Notes: generated by a model from the letters alone, not told the origin. A stretch of DNA of 31,190 nt from a virus (IMGVR_UViG_2681813317_000014); one strand, 5' to 3'; counted from the stretch's first letter, positions 5,413 through 27,692 are shown. Numbers and translations are program-made.

Positions 5413-6603
5413 TTAATTGCTGTTAACCGAGGTGACCAGATTCGCCAGGTATTTATCGGTAATACGCTGGCGCAGGGTCAGGTTTTCGAGAGGAGGCGCC
5501 GGTGTATAGTCGTAGTCGATATACAGTTTTCCGGCCTTGAGGGTTTCCGCATCGTTGGATTCTTCGCTGAACCAGCAGGTCGCATCCACGATATAGCCGT
5601 TTGTTTTCAGCTCACGGAATTTGGCATTGATGCCGTCAACGATGTCACGAATCAGCGTTGCGGTGATGGGCTTGTCCACCGCCCACATGTGCGCCTCAGC
5701 CATCGTGTCGGCCAGCACCTGCGCGGTGCGGGTGTAGTTTTCAAAGAGGAACAGCGGGTCATCAGAGCAGGTACGGTTACCCCAGAAGCGGAAACCGTCG
5801 CGGCGAATCAGCGTAGTGACGCCTGACTCGTTAAGCAGGTCAGCATCGGTGCCGGACTCCTGCAAATCCCAGAAGACGGATGCGCTGATGCCGGTAACAC
5901 CGTTCACCCCGACATTGGACAGCGTTTTATGCCAGCCCTGCTCCTGGTCGATTTTAGCGCGCAGACCCAGCGCACGGGCGGTGGCATACGCGGTGGCGGT
6001 GGTACTGGCGACCGTATCCCATGCGAGGAAATCCGGCCAGATGACCATCAGCTCACGCTGGCTGAAATTCTGGCGGTAGGCTTTCACCTCGGAAATGGTC
6101 TTACATCCCCATGCGCTGATATACCCGAAAGCACGCAGCTTCTGACAGACTGATGCCAGTGCAACAGCCACCTCTTTGGTGTCCAGTCCCGGCACGCCGA
6201 GAATACGCGGTTTAACACCAGTTACCGACTCCGCCGCCAGCAGGGCTTTCAGTCCGGTGTACTGACCGTTTTCGTCGGTGGTGCCGATGATATTGGAAAC
6301 GGTCTGCGCGAGTTTTGTTTCCTCGTCGTCGCCGGTGCCGTCTTCCACACGCACGACAACGGTGACCGGTTTTGACTGGTCAGCGATGGCCTGCAACGAC
6401 GCCGCCAGCGTGCCTTTTTTACCGGCCTTTGCAATTGCGCTTTGCACATTGGTAATCAGCACCGGTTTATTGAGGGGGAAGGTTTCCGCATCCGCATCGC
6501 TGGCCGTGCAGACCATGCCGACAATGGCAGTGGATACGGTGGAAATGACGCGGGTGCCGTCGTTAATCTCCAGCACCTGCACGCCGTGATGATAGTCACT
6601 CAT
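5413..6603 (-). CDS. FI: Major tail sheath protein FI
   Basis: 396-aa ORF, first gene of the FI-FII-E-T-U-D operon. Size, order and sequence resemble P2 gpFI. Confidence 0.95.
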   Translation of the reverse strand: MSDYHHGVQVLEINDGTRVISTVSTAIVGMVCTASDADAETFPLNKPVLITNVQSAIAKAGKKGTLAASLQAIADQSKPVTVVVRVEDGTGDDEETKLAQTVSNIIGTTDENGQYTGLKALLAAESVTGVKPRILGVPGLDTKEVAVALASVCQKLRAFGYISAWGCKTISEVKAYRQNFSQRELMVIWPDFLAWDTVASTTATAYATARALGLRAKIDQEQGWHKTLSNVGVNGVTGISASVFWDLQESGTDADLLNESGVTTLIRRDGFRFWGNRTCSDDPLFLFENYTRTAQVLADTMAEAHMWAVDKPITATLIRDIVDGINAKFRELKTNGYIVDATCWFSEESNDAETLKAGKLYIDYDYTPAPPLENLTLRQRITDKYLANLVTSVNSN

Positions 6604-6662
6604 CCGTTTAACTCCGTGGTTAATGGGTGAGTGGTATTTTCAGTTGTGCCGGAGATGTCAGG

Positions 6663-7262
6663 CTATTTGTCCCGGTTGGCTAAGGGATGACACAATTTAT
6701 TCTTTGTCGCTGATGAGGGGAATTTTTTATAGAGCGTGGACAGGCCAATATCAAAAATCAGCGCCACACGTTGACGAGATTCCCCCGCAGCCAGCAACCG
6801 TCCGACCTGCTCCCACTCACTCGCGGTGAGTTTCGGTCGTCTGCCACCAATACGACCTTTGGCTCTGGCCGCTTCCAGCCCGGCCCGAGTCCGCTCGACA
6901 ATGAGTTCTCGTTCCATTTCAGCCAGGGCACCCATCACATGAAAGAAAAAACGCCCCATCGGCGTGCTGGTATCAATAGCATCTGTCAGGCTGCGAAAAT
7001 TAACGCCGCGTTCGCGCAGTTCCTCAACCAGAATGACCAGATGCCGCATACTACGCCCCAGCCTGTCCAGCTTCCAGACTACCAGAGTGTCACCTGCTGA
7101 TAATGTCCTGAGCAGTTTTTTCAGTCCCGGCCTGTCGGACTTCGTGCCGCTGATTTTGTCCTCAAAAATCAGCTCACATCCTGCGCACTCCAGCGCATTA
7201 CGCTGCAATTCCGTGTTCTGGTCATTTGTTGACACGCGTACATAGCCAATAAGCATGAGCAT
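6663..7262 (-). CDS. Site-specific DNA invertase, serine recombinase (Hin/Gin/Cin/Pin family)
   Basis: N-terminus M-LIGYVRVSTNDQNTELQRNAL with the catalytic Ser in the VRVST motif, and a C-terminal helix-turn-helix. Near-identical in layout to Gin/Pin/Cin. The true start is probably the internal Met at 7256 (MLIGYV...). It lies adjacent to cix-like sites and invertible tail-fibre cassettes. Confidence 0.92.
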   Translation of the reverse strand: MLMLIGYVRVSTNDQNTELQRNALECAGCELIFEDKISGTKSDRPGLKKLLRTLSAGDTLVVWKLDRLGRSMRHLVILVEELRERGVNFRSLTDAIDTSTPMGRFFFHVMGALAEMERELIVERTRAGLEAARAKGRIGGRRPKLTASEWEQVGRLLAAGESRQRVALIFDIGLSTLYKKFPSSATKNKLCHPLANRDK

Positions 7263-7283
7263 CCCCCTGAATAAAAACCGGAG

Positions 7284-7697
7284 ATGATGCCAGTTACCCG
7301 TTATCTCTGCATTTTCATAAACGTTGGTTTGGGAGAAGCGGCAAAACGGAATGTGGGGACAGGGGAAAATCAGATACCGGACATGGCCTCGTTTGCCAGT
7401 GGTGATGGATGGATGAAATTACCCAACGGGAAAATCCTGCAATATGGTCGAGGTGAGGCTATGCCGAAATTATCGACGCAAACAATGAGGATTACATTTC
7501 CTATCCCTTTCCCTAAAAAAGCGGATATCGCCATTCTTACCCATTCTGGCGATGGCGGTGCGCCTTTTGGTGCAGGGCGTGGATTCGTTATGTCCGTAGA
7601 AGGCCCAACATTAACCGGCTTTAATTCTGCTTACAGAACTGCATCAACCAGCGACAAGGTGTCAATGACTTACAGTTGGTGGGCTGTTGGTGAATAA
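7284..7697 (+). CDS. Silent tail-fibre C-terminal cassette C1, copy a (duplicate of H residues about 341-473 with an 18-codon unique leader)
   Basis: The 137-aa ORF is identical from [16 protein letters not shown]... to the end with the C-terminus of the 473-aa H ORF (10363..11784, minus). It is fused to H-type sequence exactly at the cix site. Probably not independently expressed. Confidence 0.5.
7312..7337 (+). other. cix/gix-like 26-bp invertase crossover site 1 (TTTTCATAAACG TT GGTTTGGGAGAA)
   Basis: The right arm is identical to the arms of sites 2 and 3; the left arm is degenerate (about 8 of 12). The central TT dinucleotide and the AAACC-NN-GGTTT core resemble hix/gix/cix sites. It lies between the invertase start and the duplicated C1 cassette. 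Confidence 0.55.
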
Positions 7698-8267
7698 TTT
7701 TATTCAGGATGATTTATATGAACGAATATGTTTATAGCGCAAGGCATAATGCTTTTTTCCCTGTGGATATGATTGATAAATATAAATCAGAGGGATGGGA
7801 TTTATCAGATGCTAAGGAGGTGAGTCAAAATATTATCAGTGAATTTATGGCTGAACCGCCACAAGGAAAAATCCGTATTGCCGGAGGTGATGGGCTGCCC
7901 GCGTGGGCGGATATTCCTGCCCCTACGCATGAAGAACTTATTGAAATTACTGAATCAGAAAGACAGCTACTAATTAATCAGGCCAACGATTATATGAACA
8001 GTAAACAATGGCCTGGTAAAGCGGCTATTGGTCGTCTGAAAGGCGAGGAACTGGCGCAATATAATCTGTGGCTGGATTATCTGGACGCACTGGAACTGGT
8101 CGATACTTCCGGTGCGCCAGATATTAAATGGCCTACGCCTCCGGCAGTTCAGGCCAGATGACATCCGGCGCGGTGCTGGTATCTGTTGCCGTCACCGCGT
8201 CAGTGTAATCCAGCACGGCGTTAAGTCGGGTTGTTTCTGCCTGCGTCAGTTTCCGTCCGGCCTGCAA
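7324..8267. repeat. Inverted duplication arm A (C1 cassette + tfa1 + 3' end of tfa2), partner 9793..10736
   Basis: Reverse-complement identity was checked directly at both ends (7324..7349 against 10711..10736; 8251..8267 against 9793..9809). Encoded proteins are identical throughout. Internal nucleotides were not checked base by base. Confidence 0.8.
7709..8161 (+). CDS. Tail fibre assembly protein, cassette-1 chaperone, duplicate copy a
   Basis: 150-aa ORF identical in protein sequence to ORF 9899..10351 (-). It lies within the 944-bp inverted duplication (coordinates pair as p and 18060 minus p). Confidence 0.7.
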   Translation: MIYMNEYVYSARHNAFFPVDMIDKYKSEGWDLSDAKEVSQNIISEFMAEPPQGKIRIAGGDGLPAWADIPAPTHEELIEITESERQLLINQANDYMNSKQWPGKAAIGRLKGEELAQYNLWLDYLDALELVDTSGAPDIKWPTPPAVQAR

Positions 8268-9325
8268 CCCGTAAATACGTGGATGATGAAGTCCTGGAAT
8301 TAAGGCTGTATGTGGATGAACAGATGAGAAACCACATTGCCGCACAGGATCCTCATACCCAGTATGCACAGAAACATAATCCGACATTTACCGGAGAACC
8401 AAAAGCGCCGACGCCTGATGCAGGAAATAACACCACGCGGATTGCGACCACTGCGTTTGTACAGGCTGCTATTACCGCTCTGATTAACGGTGCGCCAGCC
8501 ACGCTGGACACACTGAAAGAAATTGCCGCAGCCATTAACAATGACCCGAAATTCAGCACCACCATTAACAATGCGCTGGCACTGAAAGCGCCGCTGTCGA
8601 GTCCCGCACTTACCGGAACGCCAACAGCACCTACTGCGGCACAGTCGGTCAACAATACACAGATTGCCACCACGGCTTTTGTGAAATCAGCAATTGCGGC
8701 AATGGTGGGTTCTGCCCCTGCGGCACTGGATACACTGAATGAACTGGCGGCGGCGCTGGGGAATGACCCTAACTTTTCAACAACAGTGCTTAATGCACTG
8801 GCAGGCAAACAACCGCTGGACAATACGCTTACTAATTTGAGTGGAAAGGATGTGGCTGGTCTTCTCGCATACCTTGGTTTGGGAGAAGGCTCTGCATTAC
8901 CTGTTGGTGTCCCTGTTCCGTGGCCTTCAGCTACGCCGCCAACAGGCTGGCTGAAATGCAATGGCGCTGCCTTTGATAAGGTTAAATATCCCCGTCTTGC
9001 TACAGCATATCCATCAGGGAAACTACCTGATCTCCGCGGTGAGTTTATTCGTGGCTGGGATGATGGGCGCGGCATTGATACAGGGCGTGCTTTATTGAGT
9101 ATTCAGAGTGATGAAGTCAGAAAGCTCGCATTAAAATACTGGGGACCAGCTTCAAACAGTTCACCATCAAAAACATTTGCACTCAGCGACAGTGCCGGTG
9201 GCGGGTTGTACACGGATGGAATAAGTCAGGCAAGCGGTGGGATTATCAACGCTTTTCAGCTCCCTGGTGGTAACGAAACCCGCCCACGAAATGTTGCATT
9301 TAACTATATCGTGAGGGCTGCATAA
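8231..9325 (+). CDS. Alternative tail-fibre cassette: 5'-truncated H middle region fused to variable C-terminal receptor-binding domain C2
   Basis: 364-aa ORF. Residues about 12-216 are identical to the H middle region. After the YLGLGE junction (cix site 2) it continues into a different C-terminus (GSALPVGVPVPWPSATPPTGWLKCNGAAFDKVKYPRLA...NVAFNYIVRAA) of the Mu S / P1 S / P2 H tail-fibre tip type. It would fuse to H after inversion between sites 2 and 3. Confidence 0.65.
   Translation: MFLPASVSVRPATRKYVDDEVLELRLYVDEQMRNHIAAQDPHTQYAQKHNPTFTGEPKAPTPDAGNNTTRIATTAFVQAAITALINGAPATLDTLKEIAAAINNDPKFSTTINNALALKAPLSSPALTGTPTAPTAAQSVNNTQIATTAFVKSAIAAMVGSAPAALDTLNELAAALGNDPNFSTTVLNALAGKQPLDNTLTNLSGKDVAGLLAYLGLGEGSALPVGVPVPWPSATPPTGWLKCNGAAFDKVKYPRLATAYPSGKLPDLRGEFIRGWDDGRGIDTGRALLSIQSDEVRKLALKYWGPASNSSPSKTFALSDSAGGGLYTDGISQASGGIINAFQLPGGNETRPRNVAFNYIVRAA
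8268..8887. repeat. Inverted duplication arm M (copy of H middle region, codons about 149-344, ending in cix site 2), partner 10723..11342
   Basis: ORF 8231..9325 shares the segment ATRKYVDDEV...AGLLAYLGLGE with H. Reverse-complement identity was checked at both ends (8268..8291 against 11319..11342; 8860..8887 against 10723..10750), with coordinates pairing as p and 19610 minus p. It abuts arm A with no spacer at 8267/8268. Confidence 0.8.
8862..8887 (+). other. cix/gix-like 26-bp crossover site 2 (TTCTCGCATACC TT GGTTTGGGAGAA)
   Basis: Imperfect 12-bp inverted arms around a 2-bp core, strongly resembling hixL (TTCTTGAAAACC AA GGTTTTTGATAA) from memory. It is the exact reverse complement of site 3 and lies on the codons for LGLGE at the constant/variable junction. 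Confidence 0.6.
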
Positions 9326-9927
9326 TGGATAATGCTGTATTAAATAGCGAGTTTATTGCCACGAAGGCGGGGAATATTACCGTCTATAACTATGATAGTG
9401 AAACACGGGAATATATTTCCACATCAACTGAATATCTTGCTGTGGGGGTCGGTATTCCAGCATGTTCCTGTCTTGATGCACCTGGCATACATAAGGTTGG
9501 TTATGCAATCTGTCGTTCTGTGAATTTAAATTCATGGGAATATGTGCCAGACCATCGCGGTAAAATCGTCTATAGCACAGAAACAGGAGAATCAAAAGAA
9601 ATCACAGCTCCGGGTGATTACCCTGAAAATACAACCACTATCGCCCCTTTATCTCCATACGATAAATGGGATGGTGAGAAATGGGTGACCGATACTGAGG
9701 CACAGCATAGCGCCGCAGTCGAAGCGGCAGAAGCACAGCGCCAGTCACTGATTGATGCTGCTATGGCTTCCATCAGTCTGATTCAACTGAAATTGCAGGC
9801 CGGACGGAAACTGACGCAGGCAGAAACAACCCGACTTAACGCCGTGCTGGATTACACTGACGCGGTGACGGCAACAGATACCAGCACCGCGCCGGATGTC
9901 ATCTGGCCTGAACTGCCGGAGGCGTAG
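9325..9927 (+). CDS. Tail fibre assembly protein, cassette-2 chaperone (Tfa/gpG/Mu U-like)
   Basis: 200-aa ORF directly downstream of the C2 cassette. Its C-terminal tail (LQAGRKLTQAETTRLNAVLDYTDAVTATDTSTAPDVIWPELPEA) is of the tail-fibre chaperone type. Its last 29 nt overlap, on the opposite strand, the 3' end of the convergent tfa1 gene. Confidence 0.8.
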   Translation: MDNAVLNSEFIATKAGNITVYNYDSETREYISTSTEYLAVGVGIPACSCLDAPGIHKVGYAICRSVNLNSWEYVPDHRGKIVYSTETGESKEITAPGDYPENTTTIAPLSPYDKWDGEKWVTDTEAQHSAAVEAAEAQRQSLIDAAMASISLIQLKLQAGRKLTQAETTRLNAVLDYTDAVTATDTSTAPDVIWPELPEA

Positions 9928-10736
9928 GCCATTTAATATCTGGCGCACCGGAAGTATCGACCAGTTCCAGTGCGTCCAGATAATCCAGCCACAGATTATA
10001 TTGCGCCAGTTCCTCGCCTTTCAGACGACCAATAGCCGCTTTACCAGGCCATTGTTTACTGTTCATATAATCGTTGGCCTGATTAATTAGTAGCTGTCTT
10101 TCTGATTCAGTAATTTCAATAAGTTCTTCATGCGTAGGGGCAGGAATATCCGCCCACGCGGGCAGCCCATCACCTCCGGCAATACGGATTTTTCCTTGTG
10201 GCGGTTCAGCCATAAATTCACTGATAATATTTTGACTCACCTCCTTAGCATCTGATAAATCCCATCCCTCTGATTTATATTTATCAATCATATCCACAGG
10301 GAAAAAAGCATTATGCCTTGCGCTATAAACATATTCGTTCATATAAATCATCCTGAATAAAATTATTCACCAACAGCCCACCAACTGTAAGTCATTGACA
10401 CCTTGTCGCTGGTTGATGCAGTTCTGTAAGCAGAATTAAAGCCGGTTAATGTTGGGCCTTCTACGGACATAACGAATCCACGCCCTGCACCAAAAGGCGC
10501 ACCGCCATCGCCAGAATGGGTAAGAATGGCGATATCCGCTTTTTTAGGGAAAGGGATAGGAAATGTAATCCTCATTGTTTGCGTCGATAATTTCGGCATA
10601 GCCTCACCTCGACCATATTGCAGGATTTTCCCGTTGGGTAATTTCATCCATCCATCACCACTGGCAAACGAGGCCATGTCCGGTATCTGATTTTCCCCTG
10701 TCCCCACATTCCGTTTTGCCGCTTCTCCCAAACCAA
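9793..10736. repeat. Inverted duplication arm A' (active copy: 3' end of tfa2, tfa1, C1 part of H)
   Basis: Reverse complement of 7324..8267; see arm A. Confidence 0.8.
9899..10351 (-). CDS. G: Tail fibre assembly protein (gene G equivalent, cassette-1 chaperone, currently linked to H)
   Basis: 150-aa ORF 11 nt downstream of the H stop on the same strand. This is the P2 gene G position. Confidence 0.88.
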   Translation of the reverse strand: MIYMNEYVYSARHNAFFPVDMIDKYKSEGWDLSDAKEVSQNIISEFMAEPPQGKIRIAGGDGLPAWADIPAPTHEELIEITESERQLLINQANDYMNSKQWPGKAAIGRLKGEELAQYNLWLDYLDALELVDTSGAPDIKWPTPPAVQAR

Positions 10737-11784
10737 GGTATGCGAGAAGACCAGCCACATCCTTTCCACTCAAATTAGTAAGCGTATTGTCCAGCGGTTG
10801 TTTGCCTGCCAGTGCATTAAGCACTGTTGTTGAAAAGTTAGGGTCATTCCCCAGCGCCGCCGCCAGTTCATTCAGTGTATCCAGTGCCGCAGGGGCAGAA
10901 CCCACCATTGCCGCAATTGCTGATTTCACAAAAGCCGTGGTGGCAATCTGTGTATTGTTGACCGACTGTGCCGCAGTAGGTGCTGTTGGCGTTCCGGTAA
11001 GTGCGGGACTCGACAGCGGCGCTTTCAGTGCCAGCGCATTGTTAATGGTGGTGCTGAATTTCGGGTCATTGTTAATGGCTGCGGCAATTTCTTTCAGTGT
11101 GTCCAGCGTGGCTGGCGCACCGTTAATCAGAGCGGTAATAGCAGCCTGTACAAACGCAGTGGTCGCAATCCGCGTGGTGTTATTTCCTGCATCAGGCGTC
11201 GGCGCTTTTGGTTCTCCGGTAAATGTCGGATTATGTTTCTGTGCATACTGGGTATGAGGATCCTGTGCGGCAATGTGGTTTCTCATCTGTTCATCCACAT
11301 ACAGCCTTAATTCCAGGACTTCATCATCCACGTATTTACGGGTCGCCAGTACCACCGACGGGTCGATTTTCAGCGTGATGGCTTCGGTATTCGTGACAAC
11401 CAGAATCATGCGGATAGTCTGGGTACGACCACTGCCTTCCTGCAACTGCGGTTTGTACGTTTCCGGGCAGTTCGCCACCGCAATGAGTACGCCTTCATCA
11501 TCATAAAGCCCAATCTCACGGATCCAGAATCCGCCCTCGTTCTCAGGGATGATTTGCTCCGCAATAATCTGGCTCTGGTTGTTCGGGTCAACACTCAGAA
11601 GATTCAGCGGCGCGATGCGTTTCTGGCTAATCAGTTTTGTCTGTGCCGGGTCTGGTGTCGGCAAGACACCATTCGCATCACCAACGGCCATTTGCGTCAG
11701 ATTCAGCTTACTGCCGAGCATCGTCGCGTTAGCCAGCCGTGCTGCGCCCTGATTAGTCAGAATGGCGTAGTATTTCACTGTCAT
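10363..11784 (-). CDS. H: Tail fibre protein H (constant N-terminal and middle part plus variable C-terminal cassette C1)
   Basis: 473-aa ORF with an N-terminus of the P2 H type (MAVGD..., GGFW.RE.GLYDD.G.LIAVAN motif) and the conserved YLGLGE junction followed by the variable C-terminus. Its start overlaps the gene I stop by 4 nt. Confidence 0.9.
   Translation of the reverse strand: MTVKYYAILTNQGAARLANATMLGSKLNLTQMAVGDANGVLPTPDPAQTKLISQKRIAPLNLLSVDPNNQSQIIAEQIIPENEGGFWIREIGLYDDEGVLIAVANCPETYKPQLQEGSGRTQTIRMILVVTNTEAITLKIDPSVVLATRKYVDDEVLELRLYVDEQMRNHIAAQDPHTQYAQKHNPTFTGEPKAPTPDAGNNTTRIATTAFVQAAITALINGAPATLDTLKEIAAAINNDPKFSTTINNALALKAPLSSPALTGTPTAPTAAQSVNNTQIATTAFVKSAIAAMVGSAPAALDTLNELAAALGNDPNFSTTVLNALAGKQPLDNTLTNLSGKDVAGLLAYLGLGEAAKRNVGTGENQIPDMASFASGDGWMKLPNGKILQYGRGEAMPKLSTQTMRITFPIPFPKKADIAILTHSGDGGAPFGAGRGFVMSVEGPTLTGFNSAYRTASTSDKVSMTYSWWAVGE
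10723..10748 (+). other. cix/gix-like 26-bp crossover site 3 (TTCTCCCAAACC AA GGTATGCGAGAA), inside H
   Basis: Exact reverse complement of site 2. It lies in H at the LGLGE codons, in inverted orientation relative to sites 1 and 2. Confidence 0.6.
10723..11342. repeat. Inverted duplication arm M' (H middle region, active copy)
   Basis: Reverse complement of 8268..8887; see arm M. Confidence 0.8.
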
Positions 11785-12392
11785 GCGTTTACTCTCAGGT
11801 TATCAATTAAATGAATGGCCGAGGCCGGGAAATAATCCCCTCCGACAATAATGGCCTCCGGGGTGTAGGGATAAACCGTCAGGGCGTCACCGTGATAGCA
11901 TCCCGCACCGGCAAAAATGTTGCCGGTTGTACTTAAACTGATAGCCAGTCCCGTCAGATGGCGGCTCGCCGGTTTTGCATCAGCAACGAGGCGCTCCAGC
12001 TCCTGATACATTTCCTCGGTAATACCCTGCTCAAGCACGCCAACAACGATGCGGAACGTCCCCGGCTCCTCGTTGAGCTGCCACCACTCCCTCACCTCAA
12101 TCAGATAGCCGAGCGGCTCCACCACACGGCGAATCGCACCAATAGTGCCCTTATGGCAGTGAATGAAATACGCATCGCGGATAACAGCGCGTTTTGTCGC
12201 TTCCGGCCACTTATCATCCCAGCGGTCAACCGAAAATGACCACGCCAGCCACGGCAGCAGATTTGCCGGACAGGTATCCGGGTTCCACAGCTCACGAATA
12301 CTGACCGGCGTTTTTTCAATTTCCGCACAGGCTTTTGCGGCGGCGACTTCAAGTGGTGATGAGCCGGTCGGCAGCAGGCGCGAATCACTCAT
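11781..12392 (-). CDS. I: Baseplate assembly protein I
   Basis: 203-aa ORF between J and H, overlapping both neighbours by a few nt (coupled). Order matches P2 gpI. Confidence 0.9.
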   Translation of the reverse strand: MSDSRLLPTGSSPLEVAAAKACAEIEKTPVSIRELWNPDTCPANLLPWLAWSFSVDRWDDKWPEATKRAVIRDAYFIHCHKGTIGAIRRVVEPLGYLIEVREWWQLNEEPGTFRIVVGVLEQGITEEMYQELERLVADAKPASRHLTGLAISLSTTGNIFAGAGCYHGDALTVYPYTPEAIIVGGDYFPASAIHLIDNLRVNA

Positions 12393-23930: not shown

Positions 23931-24533
23931 TTACCCCATTTTAACGAGGTGGCTCATTTTTATAGCTGTCACAGAGTCTTCATAATGAGGCACATCTACA
24001 AGAAGAAGTTCTTCATTCCCGGCAAGAGAAACAATGTGCTTTAACAGTAGAGTTTCAATTCTTGATAAATACTCTGGAACTTTTTTATGAAACCCCAGCG
24101 AGTTTTCCCTAACCCGATATGGGTTCCTTACGTGAATATGTTTTGAGCATTCATCATATAGCTTGATAAACTGTTTTTTCGTCAAAAAACCTCCCGTTAG
24201 TTTCGTCCAGCCCGTTTTGGTTACTCCTGATATTGGTACTGGATAAAAGTTAGGGTTTATCTTTTCCAACTCTTTAAATATATTCTTCGCCTTCCATACA
24301 CCATCAATCTTCTTTGTAACCTTCTCGTATGCTTTTTCATGTGAAATTAGAGATGAAAATGCAATGAGCTCTAGTAGCTTCCTAAGCTGCAACGCCTCCA
24401 TTTCAATTAACACTTGAAAATAAACGCCATCAATCCTTCCAGATGATAAAGCATGAAGTGTTTCAAGTCGCTTTTGACATTCAAACATTATCTTTAGATA
24501 TTTTTGTCTTTTTTTCTCATTCATTAATAACAT
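23931..24533 (-). CDS. Hypothetical protein, AT-rich orphan in the cos-A accessory hotspot (candidate defence/exclusion gene)
   Basis: 200-aa ORF, Lys/Leu/Glu-rich and probably largely alpha-helical. It sits in a markedly AT-rich segment unlike the flanking P2 core, with about 215 bp of AT-rich upstream region. I recognise no family. Confidence 0.6.
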   Translation of the reverse strand: MLLMNEKKRQKYLKIMFECQKRLETLHALSSGRIDGVYFQVLIEMEALQLRKLLELIAFSSLISHEKAYEKVTKKIDGVWKAKNIFKELEKINPNFYPVPISGVTKTGWTKLTGGFLTKKQFIKLYDECSKHIHVRNPYRVRENSLGFHKKVPEYLSRIETLLLKHIVSLAGNEELLLVDVPHYEDSVTAIKMSHLVKMG

Positions 24534-24748: not shown

Positions 24749-24967
24749 CTATAGTCTGCGTGGCGGTGGAGCAACTCTGGACTGACGGATATAATTAAGC
24801 CGCCCGTAATTATCCCGGACTATTTCGGCACACCCGACCAGCTCGTCAGGCGTCAGATTTTCGTTGACCATAATCTGCTGTAGACAGTGAACAATTGCCA
24901 TCAGCTTGATATTTTTAGTGTTATGTTGCGGTATCTCACCTGGTATTCTGTGCATTATCCAAGCCAC
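24749..24967 (-). CDS. Small hypothetical ORF overlapping the 3' end of the upstream gene
   Basis: 72-aa ORF (or shorter from an internal Met, MAIVHCLQQIM...). Its start overlaps the stop of ORF 24955..25443 by 13 nt. No recognisable motif; coding status uncertain. Confidence 0.3.
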   Translation of the reverse strand: MAWIMHRIPGEIPQHNTKNIKLMAIVHCLQQIMVNENLTPDELVGCAEIVRDNYGRLNYIRQSRVAPPPRRL

Positions 24968-25410
24968 CCGTTTTGCTTTGCACGCTCAATCTGTTCATCT
25001 GAATAGTTCCATGCTCCATCCGTGGCAACCATTGCCCCGCCAGACATCCCCGTCTCTGGTTCATACATAACAGCAAGGCCGAGCTGATGCATAATTTCAT
25101 GATTAATTCTGAATACCAGACCACGCTCACTAAGTTCTTTCCAGTTCACAATCTCATATGCGCCTGTATTAAGCAGCTCAATACTTAGCAAGACATAATC
25201 TTCCAGCCAGTCTGACAGGTCAGTAACATCTGTAATCCGGGCTTCAACCTTTCGCCCCGTATACACACCCTGCCCCCATTCATGCAAAATCAACGTATCC
25301 CCGCGCTCATAATTACGGTCATTTTTCCGAAGCTCTGCGCGTTTCTTTCCTTCCAGCACAAGGTCAAAATATTTTGCGTGCAGCTTTACCTCGTGAATTT
25401 TAGCCATCAT
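24955..25410 (-). CDS. Hypothetical protein with N-terminal ASCH/PUA-like (DUF3850-type) region and C-terminal HExxH motif
   Basis: ORF 24955..25443; start taken at the M-M-AKIHEV Met immediately after the gene A stop. The N-terminal 80 aa (KIHEVKLHAKYFDLVLEGKKRAELRKNDRNYERGDTLILHEW) resemble the small ASCH-like DUF3850 family from memory. The C-terminal part carries HEIMH. Confidence 0.6.
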   Translation of the reverse strand: MMAKIHEVKLHAKYFDLVLEGKKRAELRKNDRNYERGDTLILHEWGQGVYTGRKVEARITDVTDLSDWLEDYVLLSIELLNTGAYEIVNWKELSERGLVFRINHEIMHQLGLAVMYEPETGMSGGAMVATDGAWNYSDEQIERAKQNGWLG

Positions 25411-27692
25411 GTCCACTCCATTACTGTTGAGAATCCCGGCCACTCATCAGCGACCGGATACGTGAATTTTTTCCCGTCATAATTTACGGTTGCCCCACGC
25501 GCCAGCGACTCAAGCTCCCATCGCTGCGGCCTGATGCCGTTCTGAGCAAGGTCAACGCGGATACGGGTAATTTGCATTCTTTCCGACCGGGTCAGTCTGG
25601 CCGATGGTGCAATTTCATGTGGTTTTAACGGGCTTCCGTTTCTCTGCTGACGGTTTGGTGTTCTCAGGTCGTGTTTTAATGCACCTCTGAGTGCCCTCAC
25701 GACCTCCGGGTCACTCCATTCGATGACACCGTCATTAACCAGATTAAGCACTGCTGCGGCGTGCTCAGAAGGTGTGGGAGCCGGTAACGAAGTATCACCA
25801 CCAGTGAGCTTTCCACAGTTATTGACAGGACTCCGAGGCGCGGCGATGCCGCTTTTTAAAGTCAAAGGCTCAACGACCGGAACTTTCGGCACAATGCGCC
25901 AGTCCGTCGTTCTGGTGATATGAATATGACGCGCGCCGAGATGCGGCGCGTAAATGCCGACCACTCTCTCGACTTCTTCCTCGTACTCGTTAACGTCATC
26001 CGACGGACTACGGGCGACCCTGACAGTCTGACAATCGCGCGGGACATTTGCCCCGCCCTGCGCGCTGATATACAGCGCAAAATCACCACTGTCTGCGGCG
26101 GCGCGTGCAGCCTCGACGCGCTCGTCAAACTCATCAGCAATGCTGACGCCGCGAGGCAATTTGCGTAGTTCACGGTAAGCCCCCATTGTCGGCAGGCCAA
26201 CCGTTTTAAATTGCGGAATGCGCCACGTTGACGCCCATGCGGTAACAGCCGCTGCAGTGTCTTTCAGCGGCCTGCCGGTGTCGTTATCGAGCTGACCATC
26301 CAGTGCATAGCCGTCGATGTTTTTTGAAATGTATTTCGCGATATATCCCGCAGCACCGCCCCGGTTAAGGTGCTTTGCCTGAAAACGGTTTCGCGCGGCT
26401 CCTCTTTCGTCACCATCCTCTTTGAGCGCATAGCGACGCATGATTTCGATAATCTGGTTACGCTGGCGTGGATTACAAAAAAGCATCATATGCCAGTGCG
26501 GCGTTCCGTCATGGTGTGGCTCGACGACTCGCAAACCGTAGACCTGTAAATCATTATCCTTGAATGCCGTGCGCATCAGGCTCCAGATACGGCAGAGATA
26601 ACGCTGCGCATCCTTTGGATTAAATGCCTCATCGTTCCAGCCGTGATTTAGCTGGACGGTTTTACTTTCGCCTTTTCCGACCTGACGTGTCGGGTGATAC
26701 TTTGACGGCGCGGTCAGCGTGATAAACATCCCCACATCACCCTCTGCGGCGGCGTAACGCTCAATACCAGCAATGGTGTTCATCAGCTCCATCCGGCGAA
26801 TTTCAGGATTAGAAATACTGCCCATCACCTTACTGATAAGGTCGATGCGCTCGCCGGTTTCCCTGTTTTCAAGGTCACACGATTTAAGAAATTCCAGATT
26901 TGCCTGGCGACGTGCACGCACATCACGAATGGCATGTTTACTGGCATAAGGAGAACGGTCTTTATTGACCTCCCCGACAGCAATCAGTAACGCCTCATGC
27001 CAGCGCATACGCTGGCCTTTAAGCTGATGAGTCCACCACTCATCGTTAAACAGGCGGGCAATGGCAGAATATGCCTGCCTCGTGGTCATCTGTCCTTTAC
27101 GGTATTTTTTCCAGTAAAGCGGGGAAATATTGAAAGCACGCGCAGCGCCAGCAACATGACCATACAGATGCGCCTGCGCCTCATCCGTAAACAGCGATTC
27201 TTTTTCGCCATGCGCATCCACCCAGGCATCGCAGAGTTCCCCATACATCATGAAAAGCTGCGATGAGATACGGGCGGCAAACTTTTTCAGCTCCTTGTCA
27301 TTCATCCCCGGCAGACGCGCATAATGGTCACGCTCTGCCAGAAACAGCAACGACGCGTCGGTGTTCATTTCATGGCGCTGATTCACACGCTCAATGCGCG
27401 GCCATAAACGACGCTGAAAAGTGGATGTGAGGAAATAAAACCCGTGTACCGGGCTTTTATTGCGCCGGATGTAGTCATAGCGTGAAGTAAACAGCGAGCG
27501 CAAAAAGTAAGGCAGGCGGTTAATCGTGGATAAAACACCTTGCACCTGACGCATCTCGTCACGTGTAAGGGGTCTTTCGCGCCCGACAGCCTCGCGTGGT
27601 GCGTTCCATGCATAAGCACCGGTAAACGCCTTACCGGTGCCTGCGGCAAATGCTGACGGAGGGACAAAACGCCCGGAGGCTTTAACGGCCAT
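25407..27692 (-). CDS. A: Replication initiation protein A (rolling-circle nicking endonuclease)
   Basis: ORF 25407..27734. Start taken at MAVKASGRFVPPSAF..., giving 761 aa as in P2 gpA, to which the sequence looks near-identical from memory. This start reduces the overlap with the upstream ORF to 11 nt. Confidence 0.93.
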   Translation of the reverse strand: MAVKASGRFVPPSAFAAGTGKAFTGAYAWNAPREAVGRERPLTRDEMRQVQGVLSTINRLPYFLRSLFTSRYDYIRRNKSPVHGFYFLTSTFQRRLWPRIERVNQRHEMNTDASLLFLAERDHYARLPGMNDKELKKFAARISSQLFMMYGELCDAWVDAHGEKESLFTDEAQAHLYGHVAGAARAFNISPLYWKKYRKGQMTTRQAYSAIARLFNDEWWTHQLKGQRMRWHEALLIAVGEVNKDRSPYASKHAIRDVRARRQANLEFLKSCDLENRETGERIDLISKVMGSISNPEIRRMELMNTIAGIERYAAAEGDVGMFITLTAPSKYHPTRQVGKGESKTVQLNHGWNDEAFNPKDAQRYLCRIWSLMRTAFKDNDLQVYGLRVVEPHHDGTPHWHMMLFCNPRQRNQIIEIMRRYALKEDGDERGAARNRFQAKHLNRGGAAGYIAKYISKNIDGYALDGQLDNDTGRPLKDTAAAVTAWASTWRIPQFKTVGLPTMGAYRELRKLPRGVSIADEFDERVEAARAAADSGDFALYISAQGGANVPRDCQTVRVARSPSDDVNEYEEEVERVVGIYAPHLGARHIHITRTTDWRIVPKVPVVEPLTLKSGIAAPRSPVNNCGKLTGGDTSLPAPTPSEHAAAVLNLVNDGVIEWSDPEVVRALRGALKHDLRTPNRQQRNGSPLKPHEIAPSARLTRSERMQITRIRVDLAQNGIRPQRWELESLARGATVNYDGKKFTYPVADEWPGFSTVMEWT

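Follow-up and report, generated by a model that had tools for sequence, protein, structure and literature searches.

Genes and sites at the locus

The stretch of DNA analysed here (the window; 31,190 nucleotides, IMGVR_UViG_2681813317_000014) carries the late genes of a P2-like prophage of E. coli in the order retained from P2, with V, W, J, I and H upstream and FI, FII, E, T, U and D downstream of the cargo in the locus described below (6663-11784), and with an FI protein that is 98% identical to P2 FI. The cargo of the locus has the tail-fibre assembly gene on one side and FI on the other, which is the place of fun(Z) in P2. The P2 reference layout at this place is H-G-fun(Z)-FI, with one H C-terminus and G, then a terminator ahead of fun(Z), and P2 lacks an invertase; in contrast, invertible cassettes and an invertase fill this space in the window. 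Both the position of the locus and this difference from P2 agree with a previous reading made from the sequence alone (henceforth referred to as the sequence-only reading).

The gene next to FI (6663-7262, minus strand) encodes a serine DNA invertase of the Gin/Cin/Pin family, as indicated by Pfam (Resolvase, 2.8e-52, and HTH_7) and by phrog_125 (DNA invertase). Its true start is likely the ATG at 7256, which gives the 197-aa form annotated in relatives. The protein has the organisation of a small serine recombinase, with an N-terminal catalytic domain containing a Ser near residue 10 and a C-terminal HTH, and is 78% identical over 182 aa to Gin in the Mu Gin structures (PDB 3uj3/4m6f); by tblastn it is 79% identical to Mu gin and 78% identical to a cin-like gene of phage D6. 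The catalytic Ser, a substitution of which the sequence-only reading had named as a sign of an inactive enzyme, is intact within GYVRVSTNDQ, of which VRVSTNDQ is conserved in the alignment to the Gin structures. The 5' region of the gene aligns with gin at the nucleotide level; scanning this region with a degenerate Fis consensus returned one candidate only, at +131, and a promoter scan found no sigma-70-like promoter upstream of the invertase.

At the other end of the locus, the tail-fibre gene H follows P2-type I, J, W and V and is present as a complete ORF of 473 aa (H-C1; 10363-11784, minus strand). The N-terminal 345 codons form its constant part (10749-11784, minus strand; Pfam Phage_tail_fib N-terminal, 9.6e-62), and the C-terminus of the fibre in the state shown is provided by the C1 cassette (10363-10722, minus strand; 119 aa; Pfam Gp53-like_C), which is followed by Tfa1, the predicted C1 assembly chaperone (9899-10351, minus strand; 150 aa; Pfam Caudo_TAP, 3.8e-30; phrog_188). 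An alternative fibre C-terminus with a tail-collar domain, the C2 cassette (8888-9325; 145 aa; Pfam Collar, 8.4e-15; phrog_523), lies on the plus strand together with Tfa2, the predicted C2 assembly chaperone (9325-9927, plus strand; 200 aa; Pfam Caudo_TAP, 8.7e-33; phrog_105). Tfa1 and Tfa2 are convergent and overlap by 29 nt. Judged from this arrangement, C1 would be the cassette currently expressed and C2 would be silent in the state shown. Since tblastn searches (E <= 1e-3) with C1, C2, Tfa1 and Tfa2 found no counterpart in the loci of Mu and D6 or in the P2 region that spans the H C-terminus and G, the cassettes are not those of Mu, P1 or P2. Overall, the results support what the sequence-only reading had described for the genes: a Gin/Pin/Cin-like invertase, two fibre C-terminal cassettes, two convergent Tfa types of 150 and 200 aa, and H-C1/Tfa1 as the current state.

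A pattern search for recombination sites gave three matches in the window, compared with 0.00 expected in shuffled sequences. Site 1 (7312-7337, plus strand) reads TTTTCATAAACG TT GGTTTGGGAGAA; site 2 (8862-8887, plus strand) reads TTCTCGCATACC TT GGTTTGGGAGAA; and site 3 (10723-10748), which reads TTCTCGCATACC TT GGTTTGGGAGAA on the minus strand, lies within H and encodes ...AYLGLGE. Each site is 26 bp long and consists of imperfectly symmetric 12-bp arms (symmetry in 8-10 of 12 positions) around a core that is TT in the site's own orientation. Sites 1 and 2 are direct repeats and site 3 is inverted relative to both. Aligned with Mu gixR, the invertase-proximal site is in register and lies equally far from the invertase start codon.

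A 1,550-bp block joined at position 8267

The sequence-only reading had described a single set of cassettes and had missed an extra block of 1,550 bp (7338-8887), which consists of two pieces. The left piece (7338-8266, plus strand, 929 nt) is 100% identical to the reverse complement of 9794-10722 and contains, on the plus strand, a second C1 copy (to 7697) and a Tfa1 copy (7709-8161), and in antisense a fragment of the Tfa2 tail comprising its last ~45 codons (8133-8266). The right piece (8268-8887, plus strand, 620 nt), which ends with site 2, is 100% identical to the reverse complement of 10723-11342 and is a copy of H codons ~148-354 (the H-middle). When extended as far as possible, the left match runs over 944 nt (7324-8267 against the reverse complement of 9793-10736) and the right match over 622 nt (8267-8888 against the reverse complement of 10722-11343), both with 0 mismatches, and position 8267 matches both parent sequences. 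The window as written thus holds two copies of C1, two of Tfa1, a Tfa2 tail fragment and a partial copy of H.

The window corresponds to contig CYBS01000015.1 of the NCBI assembly GCA_001283685.1, from which it has a single difference over 17,422 nt, namely at position 8267, where the window has an A and the public record an N. This is the only N in 17.4 kb, and it falls exactly at the join of the two duplicated pieces. With N as the deposited base, the join at 8267 is without sequence support; the position is a scaffold gap or an unsupported join. A literature search by accession found no paper on this assembly and its assembly method. A lone N may equally stand for an ambiguous base call and not for a gap.

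Searches for the join in other sequences were negative. By megablast, nothing in 5,426 complete E. coli genomes spans it (8150-8380), and none of these genomes covers at least 80% of the locus as written, the best matches reaching 71%, which equals the length of the locus minus 1,550. The extra block is missing from relatives, and among INPHARED phages no record covers at least 80% of the whole locus. 40-mers with either A or N at the join had no exact match in GTDB representatives or JGI metagenomes, and the 40-mer with A, the one form scanned there, had none in IMG/VR.

Two orientations and the origin of the block

Deletion of 7338-8887 in silico (henceforth referred to as state A) left a sequence that aligns with E. 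coli O157:H7 FRIK944 over 9.65 kb in one colinear piece, and gave exactly the junction between invertase and C2 (inv|C2) of FRIK944 and of a metagenome contig (L003) that encodes an identical H protein. When state A was inverted in silico between the two TT cores (state B), a single colinear alignment of 8.86 kb was obtained with O157:H7 ECP19-2498. This inversion creates an H-C2 ORF of 499 aa, and a CDS of that length is annotated in ECP19-2498; as the crossover falls within the fibre ORF, the reading frame is kept with either C-terminus, and each has its own chaperone gene behind it. The two extra pieces are precisely the sequences that adjoin the two sites in modelled state B, the left piece being the first 929 nt past the invertase-proximal site and the right piece the part of H beside the site. 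All four junction types (inv|C2, H|C1, inv|C1 and H|C2) occur at 100% identity among complete genomes, with H|C1 in state-A genomes and inv|C1 and H|C2 in state-B genomes, and each genome among the top-ranked matches listed carries the A pair or the B pair. The isolates Z1834 (state B) and Z1835/Z1836 (state A), which have consecutive strain names and come from the same kind of source, illustrate both orientations, and in the invertible segment the window is ~99.8% identical to FRIK944 and likewise to ECP19-2498. The alternation of H-C1/Tfa1 with H-C2/Tfa2 put forward in the sequence-only reading accordingly gains support from genome comparison, where near-identical prophages appear in both orientations.

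In the single assembly GCA_001283685.1, by comparison, junctions of both states are present. Since both extra pieces are the flanks of the two sites in the flipped state, it seems that the assembly mixed reads from both orientations. Compared with the modelled states, site 1, which combines an invertase half with a C1 half, would be the flipped-state (B) form of the invertase-proximal site, and site 2, which combines an H half with a C2 half, would be the H|C2 junction of state B. The genuine invertase-proximal half-site is the outer half of site 1 (7312-7323), and site 3 is the genuine H-internal crossover site, the partner of which is the single invertase-proximal site. Three 26-bp sites of the hix/gix type, as listed in the sequence-only reading, are indeed found in the string, but very probably not in the genome, and the inversion which that reading had placed between sites 2 and 3 has to be reassigned to the invertase-proximal site and site 3.

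We therefore consider it very probable that this P2-like (Peduovirus) prophage carries a standard invertible segment of the Gin type with two sites, and that the extra 1,550 bp and the third site are an assembly artefact. The order on the minus strand is then H-constant, site, C1, Tfa1, the convergent Tfa2 and C2, site, invertase and FI, with an invertible segment of ~1.86 kb from site centre to site centre. In the proposed mechanism, the invertase would flip the segment by cutting the two inverted 26-bp sites within their 2-bp TT cores, a step that may depend on Fis and an enhancer, so that the late V-operon transcript would encode either H-C1 (473 aa) with Tfa1 or H-C2 (499 aa) with Tfa2; virions with two receptor specificities would result, with a predicted consequence for host range. 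During assembly, a gap would have been left at the invertase-proximal site and both contig ends extended with reads of the opposite orientation, the left one by 929 nt and the right one by 620 nt, without reaching an overlap, leaving a single N between them. Tools of the GapFiller type lengthen contigs at their ends through k-mer overlaps, and a gap is closed only where the two extensions come to overlap (PMC3446322); the course of the extension and the exact behaviour of the assembler are what we infer for this case. The artefact is an indirect sign that inversion was taking place in the culture that was sequenced. If the strain had a further, near-identical prophage of opposite orientation, the mixed junctions would be uninformative on population heterogeneity.

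The string is also formally derivable from a real tandem duplication and two inversions. A real three-site structure would have arisen by a 1,550-bp tandem duplication of 9794-11343 through illegitimate recombination, followed by two invertase-mediated inversions, with a nested locus as the outcome that holds a spare silent C1-Tfa1 copy and two direct sites and one inverted site. The geometry is exact for such a route (11343-9793 = 1550, which is the spacing of sites 1 and 2), a junction microhomology of <=1 nt is typical of RecA-independent duplications, and multi-site invertible loci exist in EPEC P2-like prophages (PMC4272514). However, the novel junction coincides with the sole N in 17.4 kb of the record, while a real one should have reads and assemble through; the junction was not found in any genome or contig collection searched; and perfect repeats of 929 and 620 nt are normally not resolved in a short-read draft unless they are written by gap extension. 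Because of the N at the join, we rank this route low and regard it as unlikely, and it is quite improbable that the block is real in the sense of a duplication spanning the H-internal site that the invertase shuffled twice into a nested three-site locus. If true, it would be a snapshot of the birth of multi-cassette, shufflon-like tail-fibre loci from two-site ones. Integration of an excised circle at a site was discarded as equivalent to the duplication route and less parsimonious.

Mixed junctions of a standard two-site switch could also arise if one genome had a pair of near-identical P2-like prophages, each locked in a different orientation, and E. coli genomes do often match this region at several places (median 2, up to 14 per genome). 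We consider this very unlikely, as each of the closest complete genomes listed carries only one pair of 100%-identical junctions, A or B, as a second copy identical over >1.5 kb with the invertase flank included would be needed, and as the 122-kb contig crosses the prophage without the breaks usual for a duplicated 30-kb element. Least credible is a fossil segment with its orientation fixed by an inactive invertase or inactive sites: although the failure to find a sigma-70-like promoter or to demonstrate a Fis enhancer with the degenerate consensus would fit, the invertase ORF is unbroken, retains the catalytic Ser and is 78% identical to Gin, and neither of the two sites is damaged, their cores being the same. 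Prophages whose junctions are 100% identical are moreover seen in both orientations, Z1834-Z1836 included, the invertible segment itself is ~99.8% identical between the window and FRIK944 or ECP19-2498, and this assembly has junctions of both states.

Relation to known inversion systems

Gin-like systems related to the two-site switch include the C segment of P1 and D6 with Cin and the P segment of e14 with Pin. The G segment of Mu with Gin shares with the locus its gene order and orientation (Sc-[Sv U / U' S'v]-gin) and an invertase on the strand of the fibre gene; sites of 26 bp in which 12-bp arms flank a core of 2 bp are common to the Gin family, and between the H middle (aa 185-340) and the constant region of the S protein of phage D6, which is of the P1 type, identity is 77%. 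The Mu segment differs in its length (~3 kb, compared to ~1.86 kb here) and in its core (GA instead of TT), and in contrast to Mu/P1-type systems the host phage here is a P2-like myovirus.

In having three sites, the sequence of the window as written resembles p15B Min, the R64 shufflon and a three-IR EPEC P2-like locus. However, in these multi-site systems each site borders a different cassette, whereas the third site here borders an exact duplicate and an unsequenced join. At least three linked sites bordering distinct cassettes are not present, no relative has a third site, and the likeness to multi-site inversion systems is most likely artefactual. In mixed-orientation cultures, invertible segments can enter draft assemblies as spurious duplications with extra 'sites', and a single N, or a base put in its place, can hide such an artefact; scans of draft genomes for multi-site inversion systems and shufflons thus need to check gap characters at non-homologous joins.

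The same locus is found in the O157:H7 FRIK944 prophage with 99.8% identity over 3.65 kb, and deposited P2-like phages have a 'DNA invertase' annotated that is flanked by the tail-fibre assembly genes and by the sheath gene. Invertase-bearing relatives comprise FRIK944, ECP19-2498, Escherichia phage pro483, the P2-like phage of O157:H43 T22 and the P2-like prophages of EPEC E2348/69, and differ from the window only by lacking the 1,550-bp extra block flanking the N. Phase variation of P2-like prophages by inversion has been demonstrated with sequencing and PCR in EPEC (PMC4272514), and an invertase is frequent in the Z/fun hotspot (bioRxiv 10.1101/2024.10.15.618418). Invertase-bearing P2-like prophages at the Z/fun position are therefore already known, both from annotation and from experiment, and the novelty implied by the sequence-only reading is not supported: a Gin/Pin-type DNA-inversion switch that alternates two tail-fibre tips in an E. 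coli P2-like prophage is of a kind already published. For the biology of these phages the locus adds little, as such switches are widespread, with these junctions present in hundreds of complete E. coli genomes.

Gene content between FI and the tail-fibre gene

We mapped the window from an ORF listing combined with repeat finding, and PHROGs and Pfam gave concordant gene assignments. Beyond the FI sheath gene (5413-6603, minus strand; Pfam sheath) lie a serine invertase gene (6663-7262, minus; Resolvase and HTH_7), site 1 (TTTTCATAAACG TT GGTTTGGGAGAA, 7312-7337), a copy of the C-terminal fibre cassette C1 (7338-7697, plus), a copy of the gene for its chaperone Tfa1 (7709-8161, plus), an antisense fragment of the Tfa2 C-terminus (8133-8266) and a copy of the middle of the tail-fibre gene H (8268-8887, plus) that ends in site 2 (TTCTCGCATACC TT GGTTTGGGAGAA, 8862-8887). 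These are followed by the alternative cassette C2 (8888-9325, plus; Collar), the convergent chaperone genes Tfa2 (9325-9927, plus) and Tfa1 (9899-10351, minus), both Caudo_TAP, and H fused to C1 (10363-11784, minus; Phage_tail_fib and Gp53-like_C), within which site 3 is found (10723-10748, minus); I, J, W and V lie beyond 11784 (Tail_P2_I, Baseplate_J). The 26-bp site pattern has three matches in 31 kb, all at sites 1-3, with 0.00 expected in shuffles. The invertase, sites, two cassettes and two chaperones named in the sequence-only reading are therefore all present by Pfam, PHROGs and site-pattern matches.

Over 182 residues the invertase shares 78% identity with Mu Gin and retains the catalytic serine; tblastn gave 79% identity with Mu gin and 78% with the cin-like gene of phage D6. 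The invertase-proximal site is in register with Mu gixR, at equal spacing to the start codon, and Mu likewise has a constant fibre part, a site, two convergent cassette-chaperone pairs, a site and an invertase on the strand of the fibre gene. A scan with a degenerate motif did not confirm a Fis enhancer, and no sigma-70-like promoter was found 5' of the invertase. A weak terminator-like hairpin with a T-run after it (7276-7295, minus) lies in the interval from the invertase-proximal site to the start codon of the invertase, where P2 has its V-operon terminator after G. P2 itself reads H-G-terminator-fun(Z)-FI and, as the sequence-only reading had stated, has no invertase at this position; FI of the window is 98% identical to P2 FI.

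Outside this locus the window carries an almost complete P2-like prophage that runs from D to integrase. A 200-aa ORF (23931-24533, minus) lies in a low-GC patch (40% versus about 55%) flanked by the portal gene and the replication gene A side, at the position of the P2 old/tin hotspot; it matched nothing in Pfam or PADLOC and, in PHROGs, only phrog_13799 (unknown function), and may be a cargo or defence gene of the hotspot that is so far uncharacterised. Directly upstream of gene A, and overlapping it, is a 162-aa protein (24955-25443, minus) with ASCH/DUF3850 and DUF7415 domains, which belongs to phrog_1812 (unknown function) and had no PADLOC match.

The additional 1,550-bp block and its join

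The stretch 7338-8887 (1,550 bp) consists of two pieces, each present elsewhere in the locus. It is an extra block because 7324-8267 is the reverse complement of 9793-10736 (944 nt, 0 mismatches; the longer repeat has five, all within the outer half of site 1) and 8267-8888 matches 10722-11343 without mismatch in reverse complement. The pieces meet at 8267, which agrees with both parent sequences, and share no more than 1 nt of microhomology there. The window holds two identical C1-Tfa1 copies, where the sequence-only reading had counted one and missed the block.

An exact look-up of the H protein led to contig CYBS01000015.1 (122,730 bp; NCBI assembly GCA_001283685.1), which has the same odd gene order, and to an ENA metagenome contig (L003) with an identical H in a normal locus lacking the block. 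The truncated 333-aa ORF of H middle and C2 was found by exact-protein look-up in CYBS01000015.1 only. Base by base over 17,422 nt, the window and CYBS01000015.1 differ once, the 'A' at 8267 being 'N' in the public record, where we read it directly (...ggcctgcaNcccgtaaatacg...). At the sole non-homologous join of the structure the record thus gives no called base, which amounts to a gap of one N, and nothing in the deposited data supports the adjacency of its two sides. In the window a base seems to have taken the place of ambiguity or gap characters, so that anyone who reads the sequence alone cannot see scaffold gaps.

Among 5,426 complete E. coli genomes, none contains 6600-11800 at a coverage of 80% or above, and none spans the join; their best matches (70-71% coverage, 99.8% identity, ~3,650 bp) correspond to the locus minus 1,550 bp. 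No deposited phage covers at least 80% of the locus as written, and exact scans found the join neither in GTDB representatives or JGI metagenomes (A or N at 8267) nor in IMG/VR (A form).

With 7338-8887 removed, the window aligned colinearly in a single stretch with E. coli O157:H7 FRIK944 (9.65 kb, 97.6%), and the resulting invertase-C2 junction, TTTTCATAAACG TT GGTTTGGGAGAAG GCTCTG, is exactly that of FRIK944 and L003. In FRIK944, the closest complete genome, which aligns to the window with 11 gap openings, H is annotated in pieces (L001 5214-6635; a gp53-like fragment and an 'incomplete' pseudogene), probably owing to indel errors of that assembly or to real decay. Inverting the segment in silico between the two TT cores gave a single colinear alignment with O157:H7 ECP19-2498 (8.86 kb) and a 499-aa H-C2 ORF, the length of the annotated tail-collar fibre CDS of that strain. 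In the flipped state, the first 929 nt beyond the invertase-proximal site are exactly the left extra piece, and the 620 nt of H adjoining C2 are exactly the right one; the window therefore reads as the H-C1 state with both edges of a gap at the invertase-proximal site extended along DNA of the H-C2 state. A GapFiller-type tool may have made the extensions (a literature search found no paper on GCA_001283685.1). Such tools use k-mer overlap to lengthen the ends of contigs, and a gap is closed only where the extensions overlap (PMC3446322), which in this locus the two extensions could never do. All three sites proposed in the sequence-only reading are in the string, but given the N at 8267 and the exact duplicates the arrangement with three sites most probably arose as an artefact. 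In the assembly of this one isolate, H-C1 stands beside H-C2 and invertase-C1 junctions, which suggests that the sequenced DNA contained both orientations.

A real tandem duplication of 9794-11343 (1,550 bp) followed by two inversions would give the string exactly, but is quite unlikely because its novel junction carries the N and was found in no other genome or contig of the collections searched. The mixed junctions could also arise, without heterogeneity of the culture, from a second near-identical prophage in the opposite orientation, a source that we consider very improbable. The intact enzyme, the intact sites and the orientation polymorphism all contradict the reading of the locus as an inactive fossil.

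Orientation polymorphism and related switches

The system is a member of a known, well-populated kind. Deposited P2-like phages (pro483, the O157:H43 T22 phage, 500465-2 and others) have an annotated DNA invertase and two tail-fibre assembly genes here. In EPEC E2348/69, Goldberg et al. detected inversion phase variation in two P2-like prophages, the first with two variants and the second carrying three inverted repeats, and confirmed it by PCR (PMC4272514); a 2024 preprint reports that the P2 Z/fun hotspot often encodes a DNA invertase with adjacent genes inverted (bioRxiv 10.1101/2024.10.15.618418). The constant middle of the P2-type H (~10765-11232, H aa 185-340) has 77% protein identity to phage D6 (L006 9956-10423), where it is the constant part of a P1-type S tail fibre adjoining an annotated cixR (L006 9821-9840); this likeness suggests that the region beside the crossover site is a module common to P2-like and P1-like phages.

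Each of the four junction types occurs at 100% identity in complete genomes. Among the matches listed, invertase-C2 and H-C1 are paired, both at 100%, in FRIK944, FRIK2069, BB24-1, TX 265-1, M10 and FDAARGOS_1250 and, at 99.4-100% and 97.8% respectively, in Z1835/Z1836; invertase-C1 and H-C2 are paired in ECP19-2498, 2-6-2, ATCC 43890, Z1834, MB06102 and others, and no listed genome belongs to both sets. The inversion proposed from the sequence is to this extent supported, as a switch between two sites. Z1834-Z1836 are bovine isolates with consecutive strain names and the same kind of source, apparently one series. By analogy with Mu, P1 and carotovoricin, which are precedents for host-range consequences of such switching, inversion here would be expected to affect host range. 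O157:H7 Z1834 (matches H69/H81) and Z1835/Z1836 (H137/H140/H155/H156), which carry the prophage segment in opposite orientations, provide a natural illustration of switching.
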